DNA of 64,000 nt from an uncultured Alphaproteobacteria bacterium (GTDB lineage: Bacteria; Pseudomonadota; Alphaproteobacteria; Rhizobiales; Beijerinckiaceae), in the NCBI GenBank assembly GCA_963713805.1, contig CAVQNF010000002.1, forward strand, positions 1 through 64,000, given 5' to 3'. Shown here piece by piece: positions 8,182 to 31,514 of this stretch (within the stretch, counting starts at the first letter, position 1; each line of letters opens with the position of its first letter). The notes under the pieces are model-generated. The model was not told where the DNA came from. It saw only the letters and a program-made list of their open reading frames with translations, and did not search any database. The position numbers and the translations under genes are program-made.

Positions 8182-8273
8182 GCGACGTGCCGCGGGCAGC
8201 CTGCCAAAGTCACTCAACCGTCATGCGACTCACCTAACGCCGATCGAACGCAAACGAGGATGCGGGAGGTCCG

Positions 8274-9542
8274 GTGACGCAATCGGCAAGGGCTCTTCGA
8301 CGCGCAACTGCCGTCAACCTGAACAGTGCGGTTCACCGCAGCGGGGCGTTTTCGCGCGCCGGTCTTTTGGAACGCCTCTTCACCTTCGCGTTCCGCGGTC
8401 TCGTCTATCCTCAGATCTGGGAGGACCCGGTCGTCGACATGGCGGCGCTCGACATGCGCCCCGACGATCATCTGGTCGCGATCGCGTCGGGTAGCTGCAA
8501 CATCCTGTCGTATCTCACGGCGAACCCTGCCCGCATCAGCGCCGTCGACCTCAACGGCGCGCATGTCGCGCTCGGTCGATTGAAGCTCGCGGCGTTGCGC
8601 CATCTGCCCGATTACGAGTCGTTTTTGCGCTTCTTCGGCACCGCCCGATCGCGCGACAATGTGGCCGCCTATGATACCCGCATCAAGCCGCATCTCGATT
8701 CCGTCTCGCGCGCCTATTGGGAAGCGCGCGCGGCTGAATGGCCGGCGGCGCATCACGGCCTTCACGGATAATTTCTACCGCCATGGTCTTTTGGGAAATT
8801 TCATCGGCGCGGGGCATCTCCTGGCGCGCCTCTACGGTTGCGACCCCGGGCGCGGTGCTCGAAGCCGACGGGCTGGCGCAGCAACGCATCCTCTACGAAC
8901 GGCACATGGCGCCGATCTTCGACAAGGCCTTCCTGCGCTGGCTGATCCGGCAGCCCGCCTCGCTCTACGGGCTCGGCATCCCGCCCTCGCAATATCGCAG
9001 CCTGTCGCGGGACCTTCCCGACGGCATCGCGGCCGTGCTTGCGCCAACGGCTCGAGAGGCTCGCCTGCGGCTTCGACATCAAGACCAATTACTTCGCCTG
9101 GCAAGCCTTCGGGCGCCGCTATGCGACGACCGGCGACGCAGCGCTGCCGCCCTATCTGCAGCGGCAGCATTTCGACACCCTGCGCGCGCGCGCCGAGCGC
9201 GTGCGTCTCCAACAGGCTTCGCTGACCGAGATTTCTCGCGCAAAGCCCGGCCGAGAGCGTCGACTGCTATGTCCTCCTCGACGCGCAGGACTGGATGAAC
9301 GACGAGGACCTCACCGCGCTTTGGACCGAGATCACGCGCACCGCCCGCCCGGGCGCCCGCGTGATCTTCCGAACCGCGGCCGACGAGAGGCTGCTGCCGG
9401 GACGGCTGCCGGCCGCATCTCCTCGCGGCTTGGAGCTATGACCACGCGCGTTCGCGCGAGCTCGGGCGAACGCGATCGCTCCTCGATCTACGGCGCCTTC
9501 CATCTCTACCGGCTGGGGAAGGTTACGGTGACAGTGCCTTAA
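8274..9542 (+). pseudogene. btaA: Betaine-lipid synthase BtaA (DUF3419), multiply frameshifted
   Basis: BtaA-like segments are spread over at least 4 frames: LERLFTFAFRGLVYPQIWEDP...IASGSCNILSYL...AVDLN; RITAFTDNFYRHGLLGNFIGAGHLLARLYGCDP; ILYERHMAPIFDKAFLRWL..SLYGLGIPPSQY; RLACGFDIKTNYFAWQAFGRRY; VLLDAQDWMNDEDLTALWTEITRTARPGARVIFRTAA; DRSSIYGAFHLYRLG. Confidence 0.7.
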
Positions 9543-9626
9543 TTCCGTGTCACCCATAGGCGAAGGAAGTGCCTGGAATTAAGTGCACTGTCACCGAAAT
9601 TGCGGACGGGCGAATCCGGCGCCTTG

Positions 9627-10257
9627 ATGGATCGCATCTATCGTCACCAGCGCCATATCTATGATGCGAGCCGCAAGTTCTACCTGCTCGGCCGTGACAG
9701 CTTGATCGCCGGCTCTCGAGCCGCCCGAAGGCGCGAGCGTGCTCGAGATCGGCTGCGGCACCGGGCGCAACCTCATCAAGCTCGCGAGATTCTATCCCGG
9801 CGCTCTCTGCCATGGGCTGGATATATCCGCCGCGATGCTCGACACGGCGCGCCAGGCAACGATGCGCGCCGGCCTTTGCGACCGCATCTTGCTCGCGCAA
9901 GCCGATGCGGCATGTTTCGATCCCGATGGCGCTCTTCGGGCGCGCGAGCTTCGATCGCATCGTCATATCCTACGCGCTCTCGATGATCCCGCCCTGGCGC
10001 GAGGCGCTGGCGGGCGCGGTCGCCCGCCTCTCGCCCGGCGGTTCGCTCCACATCGTCGATTTCGGCGATCAGGCAGGCTTGCCGGCCCCGTTCCGCTTCG
10101 CGCTCGTCGCTGGCTCGCGCTCTTCCACGTGACGCCGCGCCGGACGCTTGCGGCCGAGCTCGCCGAGCTCGCGCGATCGAAGGGCCTCGGCTGGCGCTCG
10201 GTGAGCCGGTTTCGCGGTTATGCGCTTTATGCGGTGGTCGAGCGGCCAGTGGCGTAA
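9627..10257 (+). pseudogene. btaB: SAM-dependent N-methyltransferase BtaB, 3 frameshifts
   Basis: MDRIYRHQRHIYDASRKFYLLGRDSLIAG, then (shift) SVLEIGCGTGRNLIKLARFYPG...ACFDPDGAL, then (shift) FGRASFDRIVISYALSMIPPWREALAGAVARLSPGGSLHIVDFGDQAG, then (shift) WLALFHVTPRR...VERPVA*. Confidence 0.7.
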
Positions 10258-12203
10258 CCCGAGACCGGCGTCGCCTCGCGGTTCCTACCTTCGGTCTCAT
10301 CGAAACGCAGCAAGCGTCCCGCATTGGCGAGCACCGCGAAGGTGCCGAGATTATGCAGCACCGCGGCGACGAGCGCCCCGTTCGGCCCGAGCGCCCCGCT
10401 GGCCGCGGCGACGATCACGGAAAGCGTCCAGCCGAGGCCGAGCGCGACATTGACGGCGAGCGTCGAGCGGCAGCGCCGGCTGAGCCGGATGCAGGTCGGC
10501 ACCCGCCGCAGGTCGTCGGTGACGAGCACGATGTCCGCCGAGGCCGCCGCGATGTCGGTGCCCTGGGCGCCGAGCGCCATGCCCACCGCGCCGGCCTTGA
10601 GCGCGAGCGAATCGTTGATGCCGTCCCCGATCACCAGCGGACGGTTGCCCGCGCGAGATCTCGGCGAGAACGCGCGCCAGCTTGTCCTCGGGAAGCGCCT
10701 GCGCCTGGACATCGCCGATGCCGATGAGCGCGGCGACGCGATGCGCCACCGGCTCGCGATCGCCGGTGAGCAGGAGCTGGCGCGTCGACGCCGAGCGCGG
10801 CGAGCTCGGCGCAACGCCGAGGCCGCTTCAGGTCGCGGCTCGTCGGCGAGCAGGATCCAGCCGAGAAAGCGGCCTCCGAGCGCCACGCCGACCACCGGCC
10901 CGTCATGGGCGGGCGGCGCGGGAAAGGCGATGCCGAGCTCCGTCAAAAGTTGCGCCCGGCCGAGCGCCGCCTGGCGCCCATCGTCGAGCCCCGTCACGCC
11001 GAGACCATGCCGCTCGCGAAGCTCGCCGATGGGGCGGCGTCGGTCCGGCGAGACGGCGCCGGCAAGCGCGCGGCTCACCGGATGGGTGCTCGCCGCGCCG
11101 AGGCTGGCGGCGACCGTCATAAGCTCATCCGGCGAGGCTCCCGGCGCGGGCTCGCTCGCCACGACATGGAGACGGCCGAGCGTCAACGTGCCCGTCTTGT
11201 CGAAGATCGCCGAGGTGACGTCGGCAAGCTGCTCGAGAAAGCCCACGCCTTTGATGAGGATGCCGTGGCGCGCCGCCACCGCCACCGCCGCGACGGCGGT
11301 CGCGGGCGCGGCGAGCACGAGGGCGCAAGGGCAGGAGGCGACGAGCACGGCGAGCATCGCGTCGGTGTTGCCGGTCGCGAACCAGGTACCCGCCGAAAGG
11401 AGAAGCACGAACACGATGTAGCGGCCCGCGTAACGCTCGAGGAGGCGCGTCACCGGGGGCTTCGAGCGTTCGGCGGTCTGCATGAGCGCCACCACGCGCC
11501 CGAGCGTCGTGTCTTCGCCGGTACGCGTCACTTCGACGACGAGGCGGCCTTGCAAGTTGATGCTTCCGGCGAAGACGTTGCCGCCGGCTTCGACTTCGAC
11601 CGGCACTGATTCTCCCGTGATCGAGGCGAGATCGACGGAGGAATTCCCCTCCCGAACGATGCCGTCGGTCGGCACGCGATCGCCCGCCCATAGCTCGACG
11701 CGGTCGCCCGGGCGCAGATCCTCGGCGCCGACCTCCTCGAGCGCACCGTCCCTGGCGCGCCGGCGCGCCCCCACATGGGTCAACCGGTTCAGCGAGCGGA
11801 TCGCTTCTTGCGAACCGATGAGGCTTCTTTCCTCGAGCACATGGCCGATGATCATCACGATCGGCAGGATCGCCGCCGTCATCAGCTCTCCCGTGGCCCA
11901 GGCTGCCGCGAGCGCCATGGCGATCAGCTGATCCGTCACGCCATGCAGGCTCGGATGGCGCAGGCTGTGCCAGGCGGCGCTCAGGACCGGGACGGCCACG
12001 AGCGCCGCCGCGAGCCCCGCGACCAGGTTGGCGAGCGCGCTCTCGTCGGGGAACATTGCCTCCCAAAAAAGGGCGACGAGAAGAAGTCCACCCGCCAAAA
12101 GAGCGAGCGCGAGGCGCATCCCGAGCGACCATCGCTCGGCCCGGCTGAGAATGCTCTCCGCCGCGACGCTTTCCGGCATCGGCGCGAGGGTGGAGACGCT
12201 CAT
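10227..12203 (-). pseudogene. P1B-type (heavy-metal) P-type ATPase with no N-terminal HMA domain; at least 3 clustered frameshifts around 10.63-10.80 kb
   Basis: TGES, CPC and DKTGTLT motifs lie in the main frame. In the P-domain the main frame becomes R/S-rich junk, while the homologous sequence (AELAALGVD / QLLLTGDREPVAHRVAALIGIGDVQAQALPEDKLARVLAEISRGQ) sits in two other frames before returning to the main frame at RPLVIGDGINDSLALKAG. Confidence 0.7.
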
Positions 12204-13160
12204 TGCTCGGCTCCCGGAATGACGAGGCGCGTCGCATTGTGCGGGTCGACCGCGGTGACCTGGCCGACCTTCTTCAGGATCGAGCCGATACGCTCGTTGA
12301 ACACTTGCGTCAGCAGGGCCTCGCGCGAGGAGGTCTTCATCTCCTCGGCAAGCGCCGCGACTTCCGCCGTCTGGCTCGTGGCCTGGCTCACCCGCTCGGC
12401 GGCGGCCGCCTTCGCGCCCACGATGATCCGGTCATGGTGCTGGTTTGCGTCCTGACCCTTGCGCTCGGCGAAAGTGCGGGCCTCCGCGACGCGCTGATCG
12501 GCGCTTTGGATCGAGGTCAGCACATCCTCATAGGCTCGCTCCGCCCGCGAGCGCAGCGCGGCCGAGAGATCGACGCGGCTGATCTCGACGCCGAGGCCCT
12601 GCGTTTCGGTGTGCGAGCTCCGAAAGTCGCCGATTCATGGACGCCACCAGGTCAAGATGGAGCTGCTGGCGCTTGCCTGCCGCAAGGCTCGCCTCATCGG
12701 CCGGCCGCTCCGGCCGCGCCACCATGATGTCGTCGAGCTCGCGCGAGGCGACCAGCGACAGCGCGGAGGTTTCGTAGATGCGAAAGAGGGCTGGCTCCAC
12801 ATGGGTCGCGGAGAGCACGAAGGCCTCCGGATCGGTGATCTGGTAGTAGATATGCGCATCGAGATGCACCACGCCTCCATCTCCCGTGAGGAAGAAGTCG
12901 CCATTCGAGCGTGCGGCCGCGTCGTTTCTGAGGCCGAGGTAGTTGTTCTCGGGCGGGCGCGGGTCATTGGCGCTGCCGAGCCTGATCTGCGCGTCGCGCG
13001 CCGGGATGATCACGACCTGCTCGATCGGATGCGGCCAGGCGAGGAGGAGGCCCGCGTCCCTCACCCGGTTGAACTCGCCGAAACGGAGCACCACGGCGCG
13101 GCTCTGCGCCGGTATCTGACGGATGTTGCTCACCGACCAGAGCACGGCGAGAACGAGCAT
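12200..13160 (-). pseudogene. SPFH/band-7 protein, HflK-like, frameshift at about 12.55-12.6 kb
   Basis: N-terminal VVLRFGEFNRVRDAGLLLAWPHPIEQVVIIPARDAQI (SPFH). The C-terminus continues in another frame: ...ALLTQVFNERIGSILKKVGQVTAVDPHNATRLVIPGAEQ*. Confidence 0.6.
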
Positions 13161-13256
13161 GCCGAGGAAGACGAGGCGAAAGACGATCTGCAGGGATTGC
13201 GCCCAGGCGCCTTTCGGCTCGGGAGCTGCGATCGATGTGCGGAGCGTCGGGCGCGG

Positions 13257-14271
13257 TCATTGCGGGGGAGCCGGATTGAGCGACCAGCCTTGCGTCTGCG
13301 GCCCGTCGATCAGCACGCGGAAGGGCGCGGCGTCGGTGCGCAGGAAGATGCGCGTATTGGGGTTCGAGATGCGGTCGAGCGTGTCGAGCGAGCGCAAGAG
13401 CGTATAAAGCTTCGGATCGGTATTGAAGGCCTTGCTGTAGATGCCCGCGGCTTCCTCCCTGGACTTGGCTTCGATGCCGACCGCCTCCGCGCTCGCATTG
13501 GCGAGGAGGATGCGCGCGTCGCGCTCGGCGTCGGAGGTGATCTCGGCGGCCTTGCGCTGGCCTTCCGCCATTTGCGCGGCAGCCGCCGTCATCCGCTCCG
13601 CCGCCATGCGCGACACGGTGGCGTCGAGCGGACGGGTCGGAAGCGTCGAGCCGCTCGATGCCGAGCTGCTGGACGCTGATGCCGTAGGTATCGAGGAGTT
13701 GCTTGTCGAGCTGCGCCGCGAGCCGGTCCTCGAGCGCGGCGATCTCGACGCGGCCGGGATCCGTGTTCACGAGGCTCGCGAGCTCGAAGCTCGACACGGT
13801 GGTCTCGAGCGCCGAGCCGAGGAAGGTGCGGATCTGGCTCGCCGCTTCGTTCGGCTGGTTGCGCACGGCGCGCAGATATTGGCGCACATGGTCGGGATCC
13901 GCCTCCACGCGCCAGGCGACATAGGCCTCGACCAGAATGCGCAAGCCGTCCTTGGTGCCCACGTCCTGAAGCCCGCTCGAGGTCGTCTTGAGGCGAAGGT
14001 CGACGGGCAGGACGGTCTCGAAGGGCGGCGGCAGCTTCCATCTCAGCCCCGGCTCGATCAACACGCGCACCGGATCGCCGAAGCGGCTGACGACGAGCGC
14101 ATCGCCCGCCGTCACCAGCACCGACGAGGCGGCAAGAAGCGCCGCCACGCCGACGAGGCCGGCGATCGCGAAGCGCGCGGCCGAGGCGAAGGGCCTCGAT
14201 CCCGCGGGGCTCTCCTCGTCATGGTGGTGGTGATGATGCCCAGCCCCGTGGAGATGGTGATGATGCGTCAT
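13257..14271 (-). pseudogene. SPFH/band-7 protein, HflC-like, with a His-rich N-terminus; frameshift at about 13.65 kb
   Basis: MTHHHHLHGAGHHHHHHDEE..., then a TM segment, then SPFH (ALVVSRFGDPVRVLIEPGLRWKLP...). After LGIERL the homology moves to another frame (TLPTRPLDATVSRMAAERM...KAFNTDPKLYTLLRSLDTLDRI...). ATGA overlap with the upstream gene. Confidence 0.6.
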
Positions 14272-16136
14272 TTGTTCGGCTCCTTGTCGCCGATGTCCTC
14301 GTCCGGAACGGGGGGCGCGAGCGTGCGGAAGCTGCGCATGTCGATGATGGTCTCGCCGCCAGACCCGGCGATGCGGTGGTCGAGAAGCGTGATCGGCGCG
14401 GAAGCGAAGTCGCGCGTGATCGCGGAAAGATAGCGCTCGAAGAGATAGGGCGATCCCGCCGCGACGAAGGCACGCTCATCGGTCGCGAAGCGCAGGGCAT
14501 CGGATTGCGCGAGCGTGACGCGCTCGACCGCGGCGGCATTTGCGCTCGCGAGCTTCTCGGTCGCGCTTCGCCCCGCCTCGCTCAGCGACGTTATGGCGCG
14601 CCGCCGCGCCTCGGAGATCATGGCCTCCGACCTGATGCGCGCCGCCTGGACCTCATGATAGCTGTCGGCGGCCTTGGCCGGGGGATGGATCGCCTCGACG
14701 ATCACGGCGACGAGCTCGATCCCCGTGTCGGCGCGGTCGAGCGCCGTCTGAAGATCGTGGCGCAACTCTTCGGCCACGCCCTCACGCTTCTCGCCCAAGG
14801 CGCCGAGAAGCGTGCGCGTCGAGAAATAGCGGGCCAGCAGGCGGCCGGCGAAGGCGCGCAGAAAAGCTTGCGGGTCGCGCGCCCGATAGGCGCTCGCGAG
14901 CGCCGCCTCGTCGCTCAACCCGACACGCCAGATGAGCTCGACATCGACATCGACGACCTGAAAGGCGGAGCGGCCCGAAGCATCGCTCGCGATGAGATAG
15001 CTCGTCTCGGTGGGATGGCTTTGATCCCAGAGGCGGTCGGCGCCAGAAGGCGCCGCGTCCTCGACGCCGACCGCTTCCGCGCCCGCCATCCCCGCCTGGG
15101 CGTCGGGAGCGCCGAGCGACAAGGCGTGAACTTCGCCGAAATCGACGCGGCGGACGATGCCCAAGGGCCAGGGCAAGCCGATATGCAACCCCGGCTGCAA
15201 GACCGCGACGGGGCGCCCGAGACGCTCGTAAATGCCGCGCTGATCGGCGGCGAGAAGCGTCACGCCGGAAATTCCCCAGGCGAAGAGCAAAAGCAGGAGC
15301 GCCACCGGCATGATCGCGGATCGCACGAATCCGAGTGCCCAGCTCCGGGACAGATCGATGCCGATCTGATCTTGCAGCGACTGACGCCAGGCGCCTTGCG
15401 AGACAAGCTCGGGCGTGAGCAAACCCGCGGCCGCGCTCGAGACGCAGCCGAGCGCGCGCGTCGGGCCGGACGCCGGTTGAAAGAAGACCGCGAGCGAGCG
15501 CGCGGCAAGCTCCAGGGACACGAGGAACAGGAAAAGCCGCAGGATCGGCTCGACGAAACCCGCGAGGAGGAACCCATACCCCTCCATCAATGCGAGCACG
15601 GCTTCGATCGTGAAAGTCAGGAGGGCGAGGCGCAAGAGCCGCCGCAGCGCCAAAGCTTCCGGGAGCCGCAAGCCGATGGAGCCCGCATAGGCGCGCTCGG
15701 CGAGAAGCAGCGGAAAAGCCGCGGCCAGAAGAATGGCGCCGCGCATGAAGAGCATGCGGCTCAAAAGCCCGACCTCCGCCGGCACGGGCCAGCGCCAGGT
15801 CAGCGCCAGGATCGCCAAAGCCGCGCCCGCGAGCATCACCAGCGCTTGCGCGGTCCCCGCGAGGGAGGCTCGGAGATCGGCTGGCAGCGGACCGAAGGGC
15901 ACGATCCGGGCGAGCGGCGCCCGAAGCCATGTTGGGAGAAGGCCGCGCGCCGCCCGCGTCCTCGAAGCCTCGGCAGACGCAGGCGGGCCTTGCTCGCGCA
16001 AGGCCGAGGAACGCGCCCCGGCGACGAGCGCGCAGGCGATGAAGGCGCCCGACACGAGGGCGAGCGACGCGCCGGCCAAGCGCAGGAAGGATTGATCATA
16101 GGCGTATCTTGCAAGCAGCCCGCCCGTGGCGCGCAA
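14268..16136 (-). CDS. Large polytopic membrane protein with a C-terminal SPFH/band-7 domain
   Basis: Uninterrupted 622-aa ORF with an N-terminal multi-TM region and an SPFH-like core (GIYERLGRPVAVLQPGLHIGLPWPLGIVRRVDFGEVHALSLG). It is the first of three tandem SPFH genes upstream of the P-type ATPase. Confidence 0.55.
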   Translation of the reverse strand: MRATGGLLARYAYDQSFLRLAGASLALVSGAFIACALVAGARSSALREQGPPASAEASRTRAARGLLPTWLRAPLARIVPFGPLPADLRASLAGTAQALVMLAGAALAILALTWRWPVPAEVGLLSRMLFMRGAILLAAAFPLLLAERAYAGSIGLRLPEALALRRLLRLALLTFTIEAVLALMEGYGFLLAGFVEPILRLFLFLVSLELAARSLAVFFQPASGPTRALGCVSSAAAGLLTPELVSQGAWRQSLQDQIGIDLSRSWALGFVRSAIMPVALLLLLFAWGISGVTLLAADQRGIYERLGRPVAVLQPGLHIGLPWPLGIVRRVDFGEVHALSLGAPDAQAGMAGAEAVGVEDAAPSGADRLWDQSHPTETSYLIASDASGRSAFQVVDVDVELIWRVGLSDEAALASAYRARDPQAFLRAFAGRLLARYFSTRTLLGALGEKREGVAEELRHDLQTALDRADTGIELVAVIVEAIHPPAKAADSYHEVQAARIRSEAMISEARRRAITSLSEAGRSATEKLASANAAAVERVTLAQSDALRFATDERAFVAAGSPYLFERYLSAITRDFASAPITLLDHRIAGSGGETIIDMRSFRTLAPPVPDEDIGDKEPNK

Positions 16137-16830: not shown

Positions 16831-16891
16831 GCGGAGGGGTGAAGGCGCCGGCCCCCTCACCTCTCCCGCAGGGTCCCGCAGGGAGAGGTGA

Positions 16892-18910
16892 TCAGCGGCA
16901 GAGGTTCACGCGCGTGCGGCAGACCTCGATGAAGCTCGAGTTGAAGCTGATGAGCGAACCAAGCGGGTTGCCGTTCTCGTCGAGCGTCGGGGCGCTGGAG
17001 TTCTTCTTCATCGTCGATCCGCCCGAATTCCCGGCTTGCGAGCCGCTTGTATCGGAGACTTGCACGATGAGGCTCGCGAGCACCGGATCGATGAAGGAGA
17101 AGACCGGCGTTCCGTTGCCCTGATCCATGCTGAAGGGCACGGGCGGGAGCGAGTTGTTCGCCGCCGTGACGAGAAGCGTGCCGGGCACGAAGGTGATGTC
17201 GAAATTCGGCGAGCTCACGCCGCCGGCGAAGATCTTGAAGCTTCCCGGCGAGCCCGTGGGCGCGTTCGTCGTGAAGCTGAGCATGCCGGTAAGCGCGCTC
17301 GGCCCGAGCCCCCCGGGGAACGGCCCGAAGCTCGCGCTGAACACGGGCTCCGGCGTGCCGACCACCTGCGTTTCGTTGCTCGCCGTGATGGTGAGCGGCG
17401 CCGGCGTGATCGTGCCCGTCGCGTTGACGACGGTGAGCGTGTAATTCCCGCCGCCATTGCCGTCGTTCACCGTGAGCGGGCCGAGCGCCATGGCGCGGCT
17501 TCCCGCATTCGCCGAAGCGAAGCTCTCGGCGAGCCCGCTCACGCTGTCGGTCCCCTTGAGGCCCGACACTTGCGCGCTCACGCTCGAGCCCGTGGTGCCG
17601 TCGAACACCTTGTTGTCCGACACTGCGCTCACCGTGAGCTGCGCCTTGTCGATCGTGCCCGTGGCGTTGACGAAGGTGATGGCGTAATTCCCGCCGCCAT
17701 TGCCGTCGCTCACCAAACCCGACGCCGACAGCGTGCTGCCATTCTGGCCGAGCACATTCTTCGAGCCGAAGGCTTGCGTGTAGCTCGCCGTGTCGTCGAC
17801 GTTGTGGCCCGTGACGATCACGGTTCCACCTGCCGCTCCGCTCATCCCCGCGAAAGCGGGGATCGAGTTCTTCGAGCCATTCCCGGCCGAGCCTGGGTTC
17901 CCGCCTGCGCGGGAACGAGCGGAGGGGGTGCCGCCGCTCACGTCGATGCGGCCCGTCACCTTCGCGAGCTTCGTCGCCTTGATGGTGACGCGCCCGCCCG
18001 AGCCGTCGCGGTTGCTCGCCGAAATGCGGCCCGCTCGCGAAGACGCTGCCGCCCGCCGTGAGCCACACATGGCCGCCGCGCATCGCGCTGCCCGTCGCGC
18101 GAATCATGCCGGTGTGATTGCCGGCGAGCGCATAGACATTGCCGCCCGCGGCCTTGAGCTCGGCTTGCGCCGCCGCGATCGCGCCCTTGTTCCTCACATC
18201 GCCCTTGCCGTAGCGCACCGCCATGCGGCCGCCGCCGACCGACATGTCCTTGAGGAGCACCTCTTGGCCGGCGCCCAGGCCCACCGTCCCGTTCGGCGCG
18301 TTGATCGAGCCCGAATTCACCACCGAGCGCGCGATGAGGAAGACATCCCCGCCGGAGGACGAGATCGAGCCGAGGTTCTTCACCATCCCGTCGCTTCGCG
18401 CCCTTGCCCTCGAAGCGCAAGGTCGAGCCCGCCATGAAGTTCTGGTTCGAGATGTCGAGCGAGGAGGCGACGAAGGAGCCGCCCGTCGTGATGACGCCGC
18501 TCTTGCCGACCACCACGCCTTGCGGGTTCACGAGATAGACCGAGCCCGTGGCGCGCGAGCGTGCCCATGATCTGCGAGAGCGATGCCGCCGGTGACGCGA
18601 TCGAGCGTCGCGCCCATGCCGTTGTTGATCTTGACCGTGCCGCTCTTGCCGATCGAGAAGCTGTTGAAATCGATGATGCCGCGCTGGCTCGATTGCGTGA
18701 TCGTCTCGGTGAGGCCTTGCGTGCCGATCGAGCCCGTGCCTGCGACAAAATGCCCGCCTTGCGGGAGCATGTTCGCCGGGACGGCGACGGGCGAGCCCGC
18801 CTGCGCCGCCGAGGCCGCAGCAAGGAGTGAAGTGCTTGCGAGCGCCGTGCTCGCCGCGAGGCTTGCGAGGAAGCGCCGATGGGCACCACGTCGGGCCGTG
18901 CCGGGAGCCA
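16892..18910 (-). pseudogene. Filamentous-hemagglutinin/TpsA-like exoprotein (TPS secretion domain plus MBG-like repeats), frameshifted; no TpsB partner in the window
   Basis: Signal peptide MAPGTARRGAHRRFLASLAASTALASTSLLAAASAAQA. TPS domain LPQGGHFVAGTGSIGTQGLTETITQSSQRGIIDFNSFSIGKSGTVKINNGMGATLDRVTGG. The sequence continues in other frames (NPQGVVVGKSGVITTGGSFVASSLDISNQNF...; ...ATGSAMRGGHVWLTAGG). The C-terminal part has GNGGGNYxxTxVNATGTI...LT(I/V) repeats. Confidence 0.65.
17841..17930. repeat. One copy of the double-hairpin element inserted in frame inside the FHA-like coding sequence
   Basis: ccgctcatccccgcgaaagcggggatcgag...gggttcccgcctgcgcgggaacgagcgg. It is translated as ...GNPGSAGNGSKNSIPAFAGMSGAAGG... 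inside the ORF. Confidence 0.7.
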
Positions 18911-19280
18911 TGCGCCCCCGCTCGCTCTCGAACACGCCCGCCTCGCGGCAGGCCCCATCAGAATGACGAATGGACATAGTGCCCCTCATTGCGTCAGCAA
19001 GGCCGAAATCGGCCTTGAGGCTTTGCCTCATCAGATCGCTTATGAAACTAGCCTCAACTCTAACTTCGACGTGAGCACGTGGAAGATTGAGCGCCCGTGA
19101 CGTTCGTAAGGCACGCCGAGCACTCTCATACAGCCTCTATTCCCTTTAACACAGCCGGGCCCCACAAGATATCGTGATCGTTGCGGCCCATTTCCCTGTG
19201 CAATTGTCCGGCTTATCTACTACGGATAAATTTGTAAATGGCCGTTCACATGTACCAACTTTTGTTAGCGATGGCCAACA

Positions 19281-19352: not shown

Positions 19353-19640
19353 ATGAGCTTCTACGTCTATATTCTGGCGAGCCGACGCAACGGCACGCTC
19401 TATATCGGCATGACGGACGATCTCAATCGGCGGGTTTTCCAGCATCAGGAAGGAGTGTTCCCGGGATTCACCAAAAAATACGGGGTCAAAATTTTGGTCT
19501 GGTTCGAGCAGCATGAAACCCGCGAGAGCGCCTTTCGTCGAGAGCGCGCTTTGAAGAAATGGAATCGAGCCTGGAAGCTGGCGCTCATCGAGCGCTCCAA
19601 TCCGACTTGGCGTGATTTAGCCTTGGAACTTGAACCGTGA
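19353..19640 (+). CDS. GIY-YIG nuclease family protein (small, UvrC-N-like)
   Basis: MSFYVYILASRRNGTLYIGMTDDLNRRVFQHQEG...: the GIY-YIG core (YVYIL..GTLYIG..DL.RR...H). 95 aa. The ATG lies inside a repeat motif variant (gcgcggaaATGAGCttc). Confidence 0.85.
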   Translation: MSFYVYILASRRNGTLYIGMTDDLNRRVFQHQEGVFPGFTKKYGVKILVWFEQHETRESAFRRERALKKWNRAWKLALIERSNPTWRDLALELEP

Positions 19641-20145: not shown

Positions 20146-20177
20146 GGAATTCCGTAATTCTCCTAATTCAGAATGCG

Positions 20178-22445
20178 TCAGAAGCTCTTCGACAGCCCGG
20201 CGAGGATCGTGCGCCTTTGCCCGAATTGCGGCGCCGCGACCCCGATGCCGGTGCCGTTGCGAAGCTCGTATTTGCGGTCCGTGAGGTTGATCATGTCGAG
20301 GCGGGCCGTCATCTTGCCCATTCCGGGCGCCTCGAACTCATGCTTGATGCCGGCGTTGACCTGCACGTAATTCGGCTGGCGCTGGGTGTTGGCGAAGCCC
20401 GATCTCAGCCCCGAGCCGGAGATCAGATCGGTGGTGAGCAGCGTGTCGACCGAGCCGATAGGAGGCGCCGCCCGAGATCGTGAAGCGCTGGTCGTGATCG
20501 AGATAGACCCAATGGATTCGCGACGAAGGCGAGCTCGTCGGCGGCGAAGAAGAACTGGCTCGAGATGATGTTCTTTCCTTGCGCGCGCGAATAGGCGAAA
20601 TTTCCGTAGAGTGAAAGATTGTCGATCTGGTAGGAGGCCGTGACCTCCGTCCCGTAGACCTTCCCATGCTGATAATTGAAGGGCGCGAAGACGAGCGCCT
20701 GGCCGAATTGGCCTTCATCGATCAGATCATTGGCGCGTTTGTAATAGGCGTCGAGGCCGAGCTGGAAATCGGGTCCGAATTTCTGGATGACGCCGGCGTC
20801 GAAATAATTCGCGCGCTCGGGCTTCACGGGAGCTATCCGCGGTGACGCTCGGAGCCGCCGTCGTGTTGGCGAATTTGGAGATCGTCTCGGGTGCGATCAA
20901 TTCCAGGGGCGGGGGCGTGAAATAGCGCGCGTAGCCGAGATGGACGGTGGTGCCGTCGAGCGGCTTGTAGACGAGATTGACGCGTGGTGAGAGCTGGTTC
21001 TTGTCGATGAATTGGAAGCTCTCGTCGAAGCTCGCGCCGTAGTTGAGCGTCAGCTTGTCGGAGATCTTCCACTCGTCCTGCGCGTAGAGGCCCGCGAGAT
21101 AGCCGATCTTCCTGCTGTTGTCGGAGATGGCGAAGGGCTGATCGATCGGGTTCCCGTTCGCGTCGAGCGGCAGCACGGTCGACAGATTGCTCGAGCGCGC
21201 GCGTTCCACATCGGCGAAGAAGCCGGCGCGAAAGGTGTGCGACGGATCGATCTGGTAGCTCAGATCGCCTTGAAGGCCGTTGGCGAAATTCTCATGGCGC
21301 ACATTGGAGGCGACGCCATTGAACAGGACGATCGCCGACCGGATCGGGGAAGAAATGCGTCAAGGTGTATCGGCTGAAATAGGCGAGCTGCATGTTCAGG
21401 TCGCCGAGCGATTTCTGCAAGGCGAGGATGTTGAAATTCGAATTCCTCCAATTGCTGCTCGCGCAGGCCCGCCGAGTTGAAATCCGAAATGCCGAAGGCG
21501 GTGAAGGCGGGCATCTGCCCGGGATTGTTGGGAAGCCGGAATTGGCTCACCGCCGTTCCGGAGATGAAGCTCAAGCGCGTGCTCTCGTCGATGATGCCGG
21601 AAAGGTAGAGAAAGCCCCTGCCCTGCTCGGTGAAATCCTTCACCGGAACGAGCGAGTGGGTGGGATTTTCGATGCCGATGTTGTTCTGGAGGTAGCTTCC
21701 GGAAACGAAGTAGTCGAGCTTTCCGGTCGAGCCCCCATAAGAGAAGCTCGGCAGGAAGGTCTGGCGCTGCCCGCCGTAAATCGACACTTCGCCACCGGGC
21801 TCGAGCGTTCCGCTCTTCGTCTCGATGTCGACGACGCCGGCGGTTCGGTAGCCGTATTCGGCCGGCAGCGCTCCGGTGATCAGATCGATGCGGCGCGCGA
21901 AGCGGGTGTCGAACAATTGCGAGAAGCCGCTGATCGTCTCGGGGATGATGATGCCGTTGATCCGAAATTGCAGGTTCGCATGATCGCCGCGCACATGGAG
22001 CTGGCCGAAGGAGTCCTGGGCAACGCCGGGCGCCTGAAGCAAGGTCTGGCTGAGCGATGCATTGTTGCCGAGCGGCTGGGTATCGATCGCCTCGCGGTTG
22101 ATCTCGTAGCTCGAGGCGCCGACCGCGGTCGAGATCTGGTTGCGCGCCTGGTCGAGCCGTGCGGCCGTGACCGTGATGTCGAACCGGTCGCTTTGCCCGA
22201 CTTCGGTCACCACGCTTCTCGTCGGACCGGGCTGCACGGCCGGGCCGCTGGTCGCCGGCGCGGCGGGCTCCCCGGTGCCCGCTGTCGTCTGAGGCGGGGC
22301 GGTGCTCGCAGGGGCTTGAGCGAAGGTCTGGGCTTGAGCGAAGGAGGTGAAACGAAACCAAGGCCCAGGAGGAGACAGAGGAGGAGACAGAGGAAGAAAC
22401 GCCTGAAGGCAACGAAAAAAGCGAAAGGCACCGGGGACACTCCAT
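20178..22445 (-). pseudogene. TonB-dependent outer-membrane receptor, at least 6 frameshifts
   Basis: Plug and barrel segments are spread across frames (VTAARLDQARNQISTAVGASSYEINREAIDTQPLGN...; RHENFANGLQGDLSYQI...; ANYFDAGVIQKFGPDFQLGLDAYYK...). The C-terminal ...RRTILAGLSKSF* carries the TonB-box-end aromatic residue. Signal peptide FFLCLLLCLLLGLGFVS. Confidence 0.75.
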
Positions 22446-22450
22446 TAAAT

Positions 22451-22501
22451 GTTACAACGTAACACTACGGAAATTTTTTATTAATGCAATAACGTTGCAT
22501 T
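22451..22501. promoter_or_regulatory. Two palindromes in the AT-rich region upstream of the TonB-dependent receptor (candidate operator)
   Basis: gttacAACGTaac (22451-22463) and aatgcaaTAACGttgcatt (22483-22501), immediately 5' of the receptor start on the minus strand. Confidence 0.3.
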
Positions 22502-22860: not shown

Positions 22861-24097
22861 ATGGATGTCTACCAGCGTTTGTCCGTCGCGAAGCGGGTGA
22901 ACGGAGCGGGGCTGCTGACGCGCCTCGGCGGCAGCCTCATGGATGCGCAAACGCTCGACGCCATGCGGGAGGCCGCGGGCGCCTTCGTCGACATCGCCGA
23001 ATTGCAGACGCGAGCGGGCGAGATCATCGCCGCGCCATACGGGAGCCCAAGCGGGCATCGTCACCGGCGGCGCGGCCGCGGCACTCACCCTTGCGACGGC
23101 GGCCTGCATCGCGCGCAACGATGTGGCGAAGATGGAGCGCCTGCCGGATACCGAGGGGATGGCCGACGAGGTCATCATCCACCGCGCCCATCGCACCGGC
23201 TATGACCACGCCATCAGGGCGGCAGGCGCGCGCCTCGTGGAGATCGGCCTCAATGATCGCGGGGTGGGCGCCGGCGTGCGTGATCTCGAAGCTTGGGAGA
23301 TCGAAGCGGCGATCGGGCCGAAAACGGCGGCGATCGCCTATACGGCGACGCCCGATCTCGAGCCCGCGCTATCCCGCGTCGTCGCGGTGGCGGAGCGTTT
23401 CAAGCTCCCGGTCATCGTCGATGCCGCGGCGCAATTGCCTCCCAAGGAGAATCTTCGCCGCTTCATCGAGGAAGGCGCGGCCCTCGTCGCCTTCAGCGGC
23501 GGCAAGGCCATCCGGGGGCCCCAAGGAACAGGAATCCTGTGCGGCCGCGAGGAACTCGTCGCCTCGGCCTTGATCCAGATGCTCGATCTCGACATCCTTC
23601 CCGAAACCTGGACGCCGCCCGAAGGTTTGCTCGCCCGGCATTTCGCCGATCGCTTTCCCCATCATGGCCTCGGACGCGGCTTCAAGGTCGACAAGGAATC
23701 GATCGTCGGGCTCGTGGTGGCGCTCGAGCGTTTCGTCGCTTGCGACCTCGAAGCGGAGATCGAGGGACGCCGCGAGCTCCTCTCGCGCATCGTCCGGACG
23801 ATTTCCGAGCTTCCCCATTGCCGCGCACGCGAGATCAGGCAGACGAAGGGGAAATATCCGGCGCTCGACATCGCGATCGATGTGGCGGCGCTCGGCAGCG
23901 ACGCTTATGCGGTGAGCCGTGCGCTGCAGCGCCATGACCCGCCGGTGCATCTGGGAGAGCGCCACGCCCGGCAAGGCGTCCTCGTCGTCGAACTCCGCGG
24001 GACTTCGGCCGGGCGATGAGGAGATCATCGCCCGTGCCCTGCGCATCGTCCTCACCGGCGCGGCGAGGACCTGTGCGACAACGAAGGAAAAGCAGTG
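22861..24097 (+). pseudogene. SelA-like / DgaE-like fold-type-I PLP-dependent enzyme, 2 frameshifts
   Basis: MDVYQRLSVAKRVNGAGLLTRLGGSLMDAQTLDAMREAAGAFVDIAELQ...; shift at about 23040 to ...IVTGGAAAALTLATAA...AFSGGKAIRGPQGTGIL...; the C-terminus continues in a third frame (...GDEEIIARALRIVLTG...*). GAGGGAGGGA RBS. Confidence 0.6.
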
Positions 24098-24867
24098 ATG
24101 TCCACGCGGCTCTTCGATCTTTCCGGGCGCACCGCGCTCGTCACCGGCTCGTCGCGCGGCCTCGGGCGCGCCATGGCGGAGGGTCTCGCGGCAGCCGGCG
24201 CCCGCATCGTCCTGCACGGCCAGGATGAGGCACCGCCTCTCCGCGGCGGCCGAGGCGATGCGCGGCGAAGGCCATGATGTGCGAAGCGTCCGCTTCGACA
24301 TCGCCGACGAGGCGGCGATCCTTACCGCCTTCGCGCGCCTCGATGCCGACGGCGTCGCGATCGACATCCTCGTCAACAATGCCGGCATCCAGCTGCGCAA
24401 GCCGATGCTCGAGCTTGCGACGCAGGAATGGCGCAAGGTGATCGACGCCAATCTCACGGGCGCCTTCATCGTCGGCCGCGAGGCAGCGAAGCGGATGGTG
24501 CCGCGCGGACGCGGGAAGATCGTCAATATCGGCTCGCTCACGAGCGAAGTGGCGCGCGCCACCATCGCGCCTTACGCGGTGTCGAAGGGCGGCATCAAGC
24601 TGCTCACGCGGGCCATGGCGGCCGAATGGGCCGCGCATGGCATCCAGGCGAATGCGATCGGGCCGGGCTACATGCTCACCGACATGAACAAGGCTCTCAT
24701 CGAGGACGAGAAATTCGACGCCTGGGTGAAGGCGCGCACGCCGGCGAAGCGTTGGGGGCGCCCCGAGGAACTGGTCGGGGCCGTGATCTTCCTCGCCTCG
24801 CGAAGCTTCCGATTACGTCAACGGCCAGATCATCTATGTCGATGGCGGCATGCTTGCGGTTCTGTGA
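24095..24867 (+). pseudogene. Gluconate 5-dehydrogenase-like SDR, 2 frameshifts
   Basis: MSTRLFDLSGRTALVTGSSRGLGRAMAEGLAAAGARIVLHG; shift at about 24235; ...DILVNNAGIQLRKP...NIGSLTSEVARATIAPYAVSKGGIKLLTRAMAAEWA...; 1-nt insertion at about 24815; then ...SDYVNGQIIYVDGGMLAVL*. Confidence 0.65.
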
Positions 24868-24885
24868 GCGCGGCGCGGCCCTGCC

Positions 24886-25404
24886 ATGACCTCGCAAGAG
24901 CTCCCCTATCGCACCAATGTCGGGATCGCGCTCTTCAACAGGCAAGGGCGCGTGCTGATCGCGCATCGTTTGCGCAATGACGGGCCGGAGATCATCCTTC
25001 CCGGCCATGAATGGCAAATGCCGCAAGGCGGCGTCGACCCGAACGAAGAGGCGCTCTCGGCGGCGCGTCGCGAATTATGGGAGGAGACGGCGGTCTTGAG
25101 CGCCGATTACCTCGGCGAGGTTTCCGACCCGATGACCTATGAGTTTCCGCCCTATGCCGGGCCGTGGCATCGGCTCTGCGCCTTCCGCGGCCAGCGCCAG
25201 CGCTGGTATGCGTTCCGCTTCACGGGGGATGATGGCGAGATCGATGTCGGCCGCGGCGAAGGCGGCGCCGACCCGGAATTCTCGCACTGGCGCTGGGAGC
25301 GGCTCGACAGAGTGGCGGCTCTCGTCGTGCCCTTCAAGCGCGAAATCTACGAGCGCGTGGCTCTCGAGTTTCGTGCCTTCGCCGAACCGGCACAATCAAG
25401 TTGA
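24886..25404 (+). CDS. rppH: RNA pyrophosphohydrolase RppH (Nudix hydrolase)
   Basis: LPYRTNVGIALFNRQGRVLIAHRL...WQMPQGGVDPNEEALSAARRELWEETAV: Nudix box. Intact. Confidence 0.8.
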   Translation: MTSQELPYRTNVGIALFNRQGRVLIAHRLRNDGPEIILPGHEWQMPQGGVDPNEEALSAARRELWEETAVLSADYLGEVSDPMTYEFPPYAGPWHRLCAFRGQRQRWYAFRFTGDDGEIDVGRGEGGADPEFSHWRWERLDRVAALVVPFKREIYERVALEFRAFAEPAQSS

Positions 25405-26869
25405 ATCCAGCCTCACCCGAAAGGCATCGACCAGGTCCGCACATTGGTGAAGCTCTTCATCGCTTCCACCACGCCTTCCTTGTAGCCAAGGCCTGAATCC
25501 TTGATGCCGCCGAACGGCGACATCTCGATGCGGTAGCCGGGCACTTCCCAGATGTTGACCGTGCCGACCTCGAGCTCCTGGATGAACCGCGTGATGTAGT
25601 CCATGCGGTTGGTGCACACGCCCGACGACAAGCCGTAGGCGGTCGAGTTCGAGATGCGGATGACGCTCGTCGATCTCGTCCGGAACCCGGATGATCGGGA
25701 TGACCGGGCCGAAGGTCTCCTGATGCACCAGCTCGCAATCGTAAGGCACGCGATCGACCACGGTCGGCGGAAAGAGCGCGCCGTTCGCGGGGCGCTCCGT
25801 GGAGCAGCTCGGCGCCTTTTGCGACGCGCGTCGTCGACGCGTCGCTCGAAAAGCTTCGCCGCCTCTTCGTTGATGACCGTGCCGACGTCGACGGAAGGGT
25901 CCATCGGATCCCCGCATTTCAGCTTCTTGGCCTTGGCGAGGACGAGCTCGACGAAATCGTCGGCGACGCTCTCGACGACGAGAATGCGCTTCACCGCCGT
26001 GCAACGCTGGCCCGAATTCTTGGTCGCGCCCTGCACGGCGAGCTCGGCCGCCTTGTCGAGATCGGCGTCCTCCATGACGATCAGCGGGATCGTTGCCGCC
26101 GAGCTCGAGCACCAGGCGGCGATAGCCGGCCTTCTCGGCGATGTATTTGCCGACGCGCACCGAGCCGGTGAAGGTGATGAGGTCGCAGTCCTCATCGGTG
26201 ATCATGGCATCGCCCATGGTGCGCGGATTGCCGGTGACGACGGAAAGCATCTGCGGCGGCAGCCCGGCCTCGTAGAGCACGTCGGCGAGCGCGAGCGCGG
26301 TCAGCGGGCGTGAGCTCGGTCGGCTTCAGCACGACGCGGTTGTTGGTGGCGATCGCGGGGGCGAGCTTGTGGCTCACCATGTTGAGCGGGATGATTGAAC
26401 GGGGTGATCGCCGAGATGACGCCGAGCAGCGGCAGGCGCGTCGTGAAGATCTTGCGGTTCTTGCCGTTCGGGCTGATGTCGCAGGAATAGATCTCGCCGT
26501 CGTCCTTGATGGTGAGCTGCGCCGCGAAGGACCAGACGTCGAAGGCGCGGCTTGCTTCGTAAAGCGAATCCTTCCAGCACAACCCGGATTCGGCGGTGAT
26601 CAGCCGCGCGAACTCTTCCTTGCGGTCGCGCAAGATCTCGGCCGTCGTCTGCAGGATGCGCTGACGCTCGATAGCGCGTGAGCTTCGGCCTGAAAGGCGC
26701 GCGCCTGGCGAAGGCGTCCCGCACATGCTCGGGCCGTCCGGCCGGAACGGTGCCGATCACCTCGTTGGTGTAGGGATTGAGCACCTCGACGACGCTCGTC
26801 GGTCGTCGACGAGCGTGCCGGCGATCCGCATGCATTCCTTGCGGATGGCCGGCTTCGCTTCGATATTCA
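25396..26869 (-). pseudogene. phnY: Aldehyde dehydrogenase, probably phosphonoacetaldehyde dehydrogenase PhnY (by context), at least 6 frameshifts
   Basis: ALDH-family segments lie in three frames ([23 protein letters not shown]...[14 protein letters not shown]; ...[12 protein letters not shown]; [24 protein letters not shown]; [49 protein letters not shown]; [37 protein letters not shown]...; ...[32 protein letters not shown]). GAGAGG RBS. Adjacent to phnA and phnW. Confidence 0.65.
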
Positions 26870-26930
26870 TCGCATTCACCTCTCGGTGACGCGTAGCTCT
26901 CGCGCGAGCTGCCTCGCACCTGTCAACGGC

Positions 26931-28256
<1,326 letters not shown>

Positions 28257-29436
28257 TCAGACGCTCAGGCAGCCTTGCGCGGCGGGATCGCTCACGCCCA
28301 TCTCGTCGAGCACCTCGCGCACGGCCGCAAGACGCCCGCTGCATCTCCTTTTCGCCGATGCGCCCGATGCAGCCGATGCGGAAGCAATCCGCGACGGTCA
28401 GCTTGCCCGGATAGATCACATAGCCACGCTCCTTCAGCCCATCGTAGAAAGCGCTGGAAAACGAAGCGCGGATGGGTCGGCATGTGGAAGGTGACGATGA
28501 TCGGCGCCTGCAGATGATCGGGAAGCAAGGTGCGAAAGCCGAGCTCCCGCATGCCCGACACCAGGATGCGGCAATTTTCGCGGTAGCGACGGCCACGCCC
28601 CTCGACACCGCCCTCAGCCGCGAATTCCCGCAAGGCCTGGTGGAAGGCGACGATCACATGGATGGGGGGCGTGAAACGGTATTGCCCGGTCTTCTCGAGA
28701 TTCGCCCATTGGTCGTGCAGGTCGAGGACCAGCGTCGTCGCCTGACCCTTGGTCGCGACGAGCGCCTCGCGCCGGCAGATGACGAAGCCGAGGCCGGGCA
28801 CGCCCTCGATGCATTTGTTCGAGGAGGCGGCGACCGCATCGACATGGGCTCTTCGCACATCGAGCGGCAGCGCCCCGAAGGCGCTCATCGAATTGAGGAG
28901 AAAGCTCTTCCCATGTGGCGTCGGCGAGCGCGCCGATCTCGTCGATCGGGTTGAGGATGCCGGAGGTCGTCTCGCAATGGACCGCGAAGATATGGGTGAT
29001 CGAAGGCGTGCGCCTCAAGATGCGCTCCACCTTCTCGAGGTCGGGCAACGGTGTCCTCGGGCGTCTCGTGCACGAGCGTGCGGCGCCGCGCGATCTCGAG
29101 GATGCGCTTCGCCCGATGCCCGTAGGCGCCGTTGACGAGGAGGAGCACCCTCCCCTTCGGCGGCACGAAGCTCGTCAGCATGGCTTCGACCGCGAAGGTG
29201 CCGGAGCCTTGCACCGGCACCGTGACGTAGTCCTCGCCGCCTTTGGCGATTTCAGGCAGGCGTTGCAGCACCGCCTTGTTGATCGCGAGAAAGCCCGCAT
29301 CGCGCGAGCCCCAATCATGCACCATGGCCGCCTTCACGCTGCGTGACGTGGTGAGGGGGCCGGGCGTCAGGAGAAAAGGGTCGCCGGTCTCGGACGCGGC
29401 TCTTCGGAGAGGTTTGGAGGATGAGTTATCCGTCAT
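28257..29436 (-). pseudogene. phnW: 2-aminoethylphosphonate--pyruvate transaminase PhnW, at least 3 frameshifts
   Basis: MTDNSSSKPLRRAASETGDPFLLTPGPLTTSRSVKAAMVHDWGSRDAGFLAINKAVLQRLPEIAKGGEDYVTVPVQGSGTFAVEAM...; SSNKCIEGVPGLGFVICRREAL...LVLDLHDQWANLEKTGQYRFTPP; [40 protein letters not shown]; the C-terminus ...[21 protein letters not shown] is in another frame. GGGAGA RBS. Confidence 0.7.
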
Positions 29437-29574
29437 GCTTCTCCCGTGAGATTTCCAGATCGCTCTTGATTCCAGATCGCTGTTGGCGCGACGGCGCAAA
29501 CGCCCGCTCGCCGATCGCGCCATGGTTTCTAGCGGCCTCAACAAAATCAGTCAAGTTGCCACATAATGCCACTT

Positions 29575-30450
29575 TCATGTCAGGCGCGTGACAGTGCCTA
29601 GAACATCCGCATGCAGAAAAGGCCGCCGAGAATGAACGCTCCCGACACGGCTCGCACACGCGTCATCGGCTCCTTCAGGAAGACGACGGCGATCAAGCCT
29701 GCCGAAAAGCACGCTCGTCTCGCGGATCGCCGCCACGAGCGCGATGGGCGCGACCGTCATGGCCCAGATGGCGATCCAATAGGCGGCGAGCGACATCGCT
29801 CCGCCGGCGAAGCCGGGCGCGAGGAAGCCGAGCGCCGGCTTCACCCCTTTGAACCCTTTCCACAGGAGACAAATGATCAGCATCGGATAGGCATCGACCG
29901 CGAACAGGGCAGCGGCGTAGGCATTCGCATCCCCAGCCGCGCGCGCGCCCATGCCGTCGACGATCGTGTAGGAGGAGATGGTGATCGCGGTGAGCAGCGC
30001 GCAGCTCACGGCGACCTTGCTCGGTGCCATGAGATGGCGATGGCCGCGCAGCGAAATCAGGAGAACGCCTGCGCCCAGAAGCAGGATGCCGATCCCGTTT
30101 CCGGCGCTGATCGGATCGTGCACCAGGGCGAGCGAGGCCAGCGCCGTCATCAGCGGCGCGGCGCCTCTTGCGATGGGGTAGATCTGGCCCATGTCGGCGC
30201 GGCGATAGGCCTCGGCGAGGAAGAGGTAATAGCCGAGATGGATGACCACCGAGGCGATGATCCACGGCCAGGCCTCGGCCTTGGGCAGGCCGGTAACCAG
30301 GAGCGCCGGCAGCGCGATCACGCCGCAGGTGAAGCAGATCAGCGTCATCGCGAGAAAAGGATCGAGCCTGATCTTGATGAGCGCGTTCCAGCCCGCATGC
30401 AGCGCGGCCGCGATCAGCACCGCAAGGAAGACGAAGAGGCTGAGGTGCAT
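29575..30450 (-). CDS. EamA/DMT-family transporter (10 TM), C-terminal end possibly frameshifted
   Basis: MHLSLFVFLAVLIAAALHAGWNALIKIRLDPFLA...: an EamA-like duplicated 5-TM architecture. The last 40 or so residues (RLDRRRLPEGADDAC...) look out of frame. Confidence 0.6.
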   Translation of the reverse strand: MHLSLFVFLAVLIAAALHAGWNALIKIRLDPFLAMTLICFTCGVIALPALLVTGLPKAEAWPWIIASVVIHLGYYLFLAEAYRRADMGQIYPIARGAAPLMTALASLALVHDPISAGNGIGILLLGAGVLLISLRGHRHLMAPSKVAVSCALLTAITISSYTIVDGMGARAAGDANAYAAALFAVDAYPMLIICLLWKGFKGVKPALGFLAPGFAGGAMSLAAYWIAIWAMTVAPIALVAAIRETSVLFGRLDRRRLPEGADDACASRVGSVHSRRPFLHADVLGTVTRLT

Positions 30451-30465
30451 GGATCGGCCGCGGCT

Positions 30466-31239
30466 TCACGCCTGCGCCTGGATGACCGGCCAGCGCCGGG
30501 CCGCGAAGGCTTGCGCGATCCGCTTCGGCGGCGGCTTGTCGACGATGAGGCCCGCGATCCGCGGGACGGTCGCCATCTTCACGGGCGTGCGACGCTCGAA
30601 CTTGCCGTGGTCGGCGAGCACGAAGACCTTTTGGCCGGCCTTCATCATCAAGTGGCGTTGCTCGCAAGCAAGTCGCGAATAATCGGTGAGTTCGCCCTCC
30701 GGCGAGATGCCGCCCACTCCGATGAAGGCGAGATCGACACGGAAATGCACGAGCGCCGAGAGCGTGTCGATCCCGAACGCCGCCTCGTCATTGGGATCGA
30801 TCTCACCACCGAGCATGGTCACCTTCACACCCGATGAGCGGCACAAGAGAAGCGCGATCGGCAGGCTGTTGGTGAGGACGGTGAGGTCCTTGCGCTCCAC
30901 GAGCGCATAAGCGAGCGCGAGCGTCGTCGACCCCGAATTGAGGATGACCACCATGCCGTCCTCGATGAAGCTCGCGGCCTTCCGGCCGATCGCGGCCTTG
31001 CCCGGGCGCGTTCGCCGCCTGGCGCGCGGCGAGGGAAGGCTCGGCCGTCGCGCCCCGCGCCGCCCCACCGTGCACGAGATTGGCACGCCCCTGGTCGGCG
31101 AGCGCCTTGAGGTCTCGGCGTATGGTCTCGCGCGAGACACGCCAGCCGCTCGGCGAGGAGCGAGACGCTGACCGCCCCCGAGGCGTCGAGCGACGTTGAC
31201 GATATGATCCTGGCGACTGATGGCGAGCGGACGATTCAT
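30466..31239 (-). pseudogene. DeoR/GlpR-family transcriptional regulator, frameshifts in the N-terminal HTH region
   Basis: The C-terminal sugar-phosphate-binding domain is intact in the main frame (AASFIEDGMVVILNSGSTTLALAYAL...VFVLADHGKF). The HTH (LLAERLGVSRETIRRDLKALADQG) sits in another frame. MNRPLAISRQDHIVNVARRLG at the start. Confidence 0.6.
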
Positions 31240-31514
31240 GAAAGGCGAAGCCCGGTCGGAGCGCGATGCGAGTTGTGGCATTTTGTGGCAATTTCTGCAA
31301 GCGTCGGAGTTTGTCGTCGCGCGCGGATGGTCTTGCTCTTTGCTCGCGCAATTGCCATGGTTTGCGCGGTCATCCAGATATGAGGAACTCCTCCAGCGCC
31401 TTCGGCAACGGGCAACGCCCGAACCGAAAGCAGGGCGTGAAAGGATCGGGCGGCTACCCCGGACGGCCACATTGACGAATTGCGGCGACAGCCGTTTTTC
31501 AGGAGCCGTCCCCG

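Follow-up and report, generated by a model that had tools for sequence, protein, structure and literature searches.

Why do the reading frames of at least 14 neighboring genes break, one after another, within ~23 kb of a bacterial contig whose flanks are largely intact? The contig (CAVQNF010000002.1 of assembly GCA_963713805.1) stems from an uncultured alphaproteobacterium of the Beijerinckiaceae, and the window is the whole stretch of 64,000 nt analyzed here; all coordinates are positions in this window. A first-pass annotation had drawn attention to the broken genes, which include btaA and btaB, a P1B-type ATPase, a TonB-dependent receptor and phnW, phnA and phnY, and had slightly preferred real pseudogenes as the explanation. 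This view is contradicted by a spectrum of almost exclusively +1 insertions, the lack of nonsense codons, purifying selection and the intact state of the same genes elsewhere in the species. Judging from the pattern in the sequence, the frameshifts are most probably errors of consensus building from two non-identical haplotypes rather than mutations.

Extent and spectrum of the frameshifts

With its GC content of ~63%, the window is rich in long spurious open reading frames (ORFs), so that ORF lists by themselves reveal little. Frame-changing events were called with a frameshift-aware dynamic program that aligns intact orthologues of syntenic relatives to the window and, by a second route, from nucleotide alignments of the window to two same-species contigs, L007 and L089. 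The frames of the FHA-like TpsA gene were read directly and not via an orthologue alignment. A total of 14 genes carry ~56 such events between ~8.7 and 31.3 kb, compared to ~2 candidates in the 41 kb of flank, a clustering far beyond chance. Many same-strand frame switches are also visible between 8.3 and 31.3 kb in a frame plot of the GC content at third codon positions (GC3). The block of frame-jumping genes between largely intact flanks is hence as described in the first-pass annotation, and its extent of 8.2 to 31.3 kb holds broadly, the first firm event lying at 8731 and the last at ~31270. All the genes named there are indeed shifted, but an EamA transporter had been overlooked. Where at least four shifts had been proposed for btaA, seven were found; the three in btaB comprise two insertions and a deletion, and the cluster of at least three in the ATPase gene corresponds to exactly three, all within 10657–10811. 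The receptor gene, for which at least six had been counted, has five insertions and one 11-bp partial duplication.

The events are strikingly uniform. In coding sequence, ~52 one-base insertions stand against a single one-base deletion (10107) and the 11-bp partial duplication, while four further single-base insertions are non-coding (19052, 22710, 22822 and 22848). In the comparison with L007, insertions are about equally dense in coding (~2.4 per kb) and non-coding (~2.5 per kb) DNA. The frames of successive tblastn matches advance in one direction only, e.g., -1, -2, -3, -1, -2, -3 along the receptor gene. No in-frame stop occurs in the ~5,200 reconstructed codons of 13 genes, and the gene fragments keep a GC3 of 0.8–0.9.

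A codon-usage Viterbi segmentation was usable inside the stretch but confused the strands in the lower-GC right flank, and the flanks were therefore checked by Pfam coverage. Seventeen flank genes span their Pfam profiles essentially end to end. On the right, the glycosidase gene GH1 is the first that can be checked against an orthologue, and it has no shift; on the left, no indel is present in 7149–8191 and 7587–8730 compared to contigs of 96–98% identity. The flanks are largely uninterrupted, as had been reported. The shift suspected at ~37787 in a pilin gene was not borne out, as this gene (SCPU domain, 37784–38257) is full length.

Alleles of relatives in the extra bases

With the intact SPFH protein of the stretch as the query, six loci in synteny were retrieved from metagenome-assembled genomes of Hyphomicrobiales and Beijerinckiaceae, and later searches added further loci; a chimeric metagenome query, although dominated by phnA relatives, still yielded L011, L013, L018 and L019. 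The gene order of the window from btaA to GH1 is common to L001, L003, L008, L013 and L018. When the receptor was used as a query after removal of its frameshifts, an intact protein of 745 amino acids (P0001) with 99% identity was retrieved. The 7-kb contig L007, which shares ~97% nucleotide identity with 19002–26155, carries the NUDIX, short-chain dehydrogenase (SDR), SelA-like, receptor and GIY-YIG genes, all intact. Likewise, the de-frameshifted BtaA led to an intact BtaA of 416 amino acids (97% identity) on L089, a contig that also encodes BtaB and the ATPase and is 96% identical to 7588–12152 at the nucleotide level. Once the extra bases are removed, the ratio of non-synonymous to synonymous substitution rates (dN/dS) is 0.11 against L007 and 0.18 against L089: the underlying coding sequence is under strongly purifying selection. 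Both the comparison with the same loci in relatives and the dN/dS of the reconstructed ORFs had been suggested in the first-pass annotation, and here the former finds the genes intact on L007 and L089. A combined DeoR and EamA query found no same-species contig, which leaves the right edge of the stretch without a close reference.

For 25 coding insertions, the exact position follows from the alignments to L007 and L089. Most of these are not homopolymer extensions, as had already been remarked for the shifts in general. That they are not homopolymer slips speaks for two mixed alleles and not for genuine mutations. In an allele test, an event was scored positive if the extra base is unlike both of its neighbors and identical to the base at the adjacent position in a more distant relative. 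This is the case for 16 of the 25 sites (nine of 13 for L007 and seven of 12 for L089), whereas exhaustive enumeration gives chance rates of 0.13 and 0.14, respectively (combined binomial p ~1e-8). For instance, GA[T]C in the window, with the extra base in brackets, corresponds to GAC in L007 and to GAT in four other relatives, and CG[C]G to CGG in L007 and CGC in others. The counterpart of C[G]TC, found twice, is CTC in L007 and GTC or GTG in L003. Examples in btaB are GG[C]T and GA[T]C, and at one site in the ATPase gene the window combines two alleles, which are offset by a short local shift. Site after site, adjacent bases of the window appear to be both alleles of one natural single-nucleotide polymorphism (SNP).

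As a control, simulated random insertions were run through the identical alignment pipeline. An identical base adjoins the extra one in a proportion of 0.32 of the real events but 0.50 of the simulated ones, while the wobble pairs T|C and A|G are more frequent among the real events (0.23 versus 0.10). Frameshift-aware alignment may take the original base for the extra one and thereby inflate the null; the version of the test based on this alignment therefore demands that both alleles be present among relatives, as they are for 18 of 47 real events compared to a proportion of 0.22 in the simulation.

A probable mixture of two haplotypes, and the alternatives

The consensus over ~8.2–31.3 kb would thus have been drawn from two non-identical copies of one locus, most likely two strains that occur together and differ by a few percent, or a pair of overlapping contigs joined by merging. 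A SNP between the copies may sometimes have been aligned as a pair of gaps instead of a mismatch; a consensus that keeps both bases of such a pair would gain one nucleotide and shift the frame. Both alleles would have been retained at a minority of the SNPs, amounting to ~7% of those in the L007 region if the second copy resembles L007. Candidate routes are a strain-collapsed long-read consensus, cross-strain polishing or the merger of overlapping contigs. What the sequence shows directly is the pattern of events, the intact genes elsewhere in the species and the allelic identity of the extra bases; the software step and the nature of the second copy (strain, contig or duplicated paralogue) are conjectural. 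The flanks would be clean where a single copy contributed, and the stretch would end at or near sites of structural difference among related genomes. At the left edge, L019 is 98% identical to the window over 7149–8191 without a gap and unrelated from 8192 on (L019 1044–1368), suggesting that strains differ structurally exactly there. At the right edge, 31303–32399 (~1.1 kb) is missing from L018 and L013, in which DeoR adjoins GH1; this segment holds one ORF (31515–32315, 266 amino acids) without a Pfam match. The affected stretch accordingly reads as a segment between structurally polymorphic sites and not as a mobile island.

Several points weigh against a mixture of two copies. The two-allele signature is missing from nine of the 25 events with an exact position; six of these nine adjoin an identical base and may simply be indel noise of the ordinary kind. 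L089 runs colinear with the window through 8192, free of indels up to 8731, and the left junction therefore occurs naturally in at least one strain. The first event lies 540 bp inside the left breakpoint. The events are also unevenly spread, with none in 13.7–18.0 kb and ~7 per kb in the phn genes, which obliges a two-copy model to assume an uneven divergence between the copies. Finally, the second haplotype itself is deduced from the pattern of bases, and the conversion of mismatches to gap pairs by a consensus program is presumed.

Ordinary long-read indel noise that survived in a thinly covered or unpolished stretch, with no second haplotype involved, would explain the events lacking the signature and the confinement of the errors to one contiguous stretch, and a relative, L008, shows split genes that are typical of long-read assemblies. 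We nonetheless consider such noise unlikely. Residual long-read errors are usually linked to homopolymers and include deletions, whereas insertions here outnumber deletions ~52 to one, homopolymers are not enriched (same-base adjacency is under the random expectation), and the extra base matches a natural alternative allele much more frequently than chance allows. The regional assembly indel errors that the first-pass annotation offered as its other explanation come close to the haplotype mixture that we favor, although low coverage as their cause is not shown. Genuine pseudogenes, in a decaying accessory island or in a genome undergoing reductive evolution, would fit disruptions that are dense, regional and in many cases outside homopolymers, and edges at or near structural variation among relatives. 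Bacterial gene decay is deletion-biased, however, while nearly all events here are insertions and neither varied sizes nor a deletion bias is seen. Instead of disruptions of mixed kinds, the reconstructed frames contain no nonsense codon, and frameshifting deletions of more than one base and insertion sequence (IS) elements are likewise absent. Selection is not relaxed (dN/dS 0.11–0.18), the GC3 of the fragments is maintained, intact copies exist at 96–97% nucleotide identity, and the gene order is that of the relatives, while the edges lack tRNA genes and repeats. Given bacterial mutation spectra, 50 neutral indels should be accompanied by neutral substitutions in the hundreds, often non-synonymous ones, and by some stops; neither this substitution load nor the stops are seen in the stretch. 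The extra bases moreover duplicate known alleles, and we know of no mutational process that does so. Altogether, we regard gene decay as very improbable. Pseudogene-rich reducing genomes such as those of Mycobacterium leprae and recent host-restricted symbionts carry stops, deletions of varied size, IS activity and signs of relaxed selection. The stretch resembles them in its many disrupted neighbors and its conserved gene order, but none of these marks of decay is seen here.

Two further readings accept the extra bases as real. The bases could be tolerated if the genes were expressed via programmed +1 frameshifting or transcript editing, in keeping with shifts that run in one direction and an underlying coding sequence that is well conserved. 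Nevertheless, the sites share no slippery or stimulatory motif, non-coding DNA has the same density of insertions, and the extra bases are missing from the same-species contigs. To our knowledge, no bacterial frameshifting or editing system reaches such a density, and we give this reading practically no credence. It also appears extremely improbable that the genome itself contains both alleles of each pair in tandem, which would take recombination of two diverged 23-kb copies and an aberrant processing of the heteroduplex that keeps both mismatched bases, inactivating 14 genes at once.

The proposed mixture of haplotypes has a counterpart in Trypanosoma brucei Lister 427, where the collapse of alleles into one assembly led to misaligned reads, to INDEL errors and to the truncation of ORFs, which phasing repaired (PMC8445201). 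In that case, nearby allelic variants shift the alignment and the consensus gains indels, which fits the signature of two alleles in tandem observed here (PMC8445201). Yet, T. brucei is a diploid eukaryote with known reads, while bacterial strains or merged contigs are presumed here and only one 23-kb stretch is concerned. Frameshifted genes due to residual indels in long-read assemblies are discussed in the same paper (PMC8445201). Those errors are also single-base indels that break ORFs without nonsense substitutions, and polishing repairs them. On the contrary, they are mainly found in homopolymers and assembly-wide, and not as regional, non-homopolymer, insertion-only and allele-matched events.

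The frameshifted stretch is almost certainly not a biological feature and thus of little biological interest. In annotation, btaAB, the P-type ATPase, SPFH/HflKC, the TonB-dependent receptor and phnWAY should be treated as functional genes and not as pseudogenes, and the record is unsuitable as an example of regional gene decay. The combination of exclusively +1 frameshifts, no stops in the reconstructed frames and extra bases that match alleles of relatives may serve as a screen for a strain-collapsed or merged consensus.

Genes of the stretch and its surroundings

Table 1. Features in and next to the affected stretch, with the frame-changing events assigned to them (~, approximate position).
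Feature	Coordinates	Strand	Observations
ABC permease	7414..8181	+	Intact; last clean left-hand gene; Pfam BPD_transp_1 3-182/184; no indels vs L019 or L089
Affected stretch	8192..31303	.	~56 single-base insertions; apparently bounded by structural breakpoints known from relatives
btaA (DUF3419, betaine-lipid synthesis)	8274..9531	+	One-base insertions (n = 7) at 8731, 8844, 9037, 9226, 9411, 9469, 9515; alignment to L089
btaB methyltransferase	9627..10257	+	Insertions at 9713, 9921; one-base deletion at 10107
P1B-type ATPase	10227..12203	-	Insertions (n = 3) at 10657, 10787, 10811
HflK-like Band_7 gene	12200..13300	-	Insertion (n = 1) at ~12599
HflC-like Band_7 gene	13260..14271	-	Insertion (n = 1) at ~13647
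SPFH/Band_7 membrane protein	14268..16136	-	Intact; no events across 1.9 kb
FHA-like TpsA (TPS, YDG, MBG domains)	16892..19031	-	Shifts (n = 4), all +1, at ~18585, ~18555, ~18400, 18035-18070
GIY-YIG gene	19353..19640	+	Intact
TonB-dependent receptor	20178..22431	-	Insertions (n = 5) at 20449, 20516, 20832, 21329, 21441; 11-bp partial duplication at 22335-22345
SelA-like/aminotransferase	22861..24098	+	Insertions at 23034, 23991; upstream non-coding insertions at 22710, 22822, 22848
Short-chain dehydrogenase (SDR)	24098..24867	+	Insertions at 24231, 24800
NUDIX (RppH-like)	24886..25404	+	Intact
phnY aldehyde dehydrogenase	25416..26890	-	Insertions (n = 10), exact at 25665, 25787, 25825, 26089; approximate at 26308, 26390, 26670, 26791, 26807, 26874
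phnA phosphonoacetate hydrolase	26931..28230	-	Insertions (n = 6) at ~27237, ~27520, ~27752, ~27894, ~28027, ~28130
phnW aminotransferase	28272..29467	-	Insertions (n = 4) at ~28338, ~28450, ~28919, ~29049
EamA/DMT transporter	29598..30450	-	Insertion (n = 1) at ~29700; C-terminus scrambled
DeoR regulator	30466..31320	-	Insertions (n = 4) at ~31006, ~31139, ~31194, ~31270
GH1 glycosidase	32391..33866	-	Intact; no shift in frameshift-aware alignment; Pfam 7-451/453

Among the genes within the stretch (Table 1), the GIY-YIG, NUDIX (RppH) and SPFH genes had been listed as uninterrupted, which the alignments corroborate. The ORF of the P1B-type ATPase remains open in spite of its insertions, with ~50 codons between them out of frame. 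In the same gene, the divergence between the window and L089 steps from ~0–0.4% (10250–11250) to 7–15% (11250–12152), which looks like a tract of recombination between strains. The TPS profile of the TpsA gene is divided among separate ORFs. At 16430–16840 and 19298–20147, short repeats form arrays (123 bp x 2.9, 28 bp x 5.5 and 229 bp x 1.9) that flank the block of TpsA and GIY-YIG (16.3–20.2 kb) on both sides, and this block is missing between the SPFH and receptor genes in L003, L008 and L011. Two copies of the 13-mer GCTTGAGCGAAGG, 18 bp apart, lie in the part of the receptor gene that encodes the signal peptide (22314–22345) and account for the 11-bp insertion compared to L007; this insertion may be a natural indel or, alternatively, an indel polymorphism that was mis-joined.

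A GC-dependent loss of coverage was ruled out, as the receptor gene (58–62% GC) is as affected as genes with 70% GC. Also ruled out was a mobile genomic island: the edges of the stretch show no tRNA gene, no Rfam match and no shared repeat of at least 12 nt, and the gene order is kept in L001, L003, L008, L013 and L018.

Outside the stretch, a family-5 solute-binding protein gene (181–1932, - strand) loses its frame ~60 codons before the end. The first-pass annotation had grouped this site, at 205, with the others. In the deposited sequence the frame is indeed lost, but this results from a one-base deletion in a G4/C4 run, the true C-terminus running to ~32 in another frame, and the event differs in kind from the insertions of the main stretch. 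An apparent +1 frame change at ~52.6 kb falls within the repeats (GGGHEGGG, GHDGGK) of a His/Gly-rich repetitive gene (52298–53250, + strand). For the FecR-like gene (- strand), alignment to the L018 orthologue (67% identity) requires a +1/-1 pair 62 nt apart at 34579–34641, although the ORF of 525 amino acids is open; the pair probably stems from misalignment of a divergent segment. Among the relatives, L008 (ENA ERZ25039537 contig_49708) has its own aldehyde dehydrogenase, MFS and ATPase genes split, and frameshift errors seem to be common among assemblies of this group.

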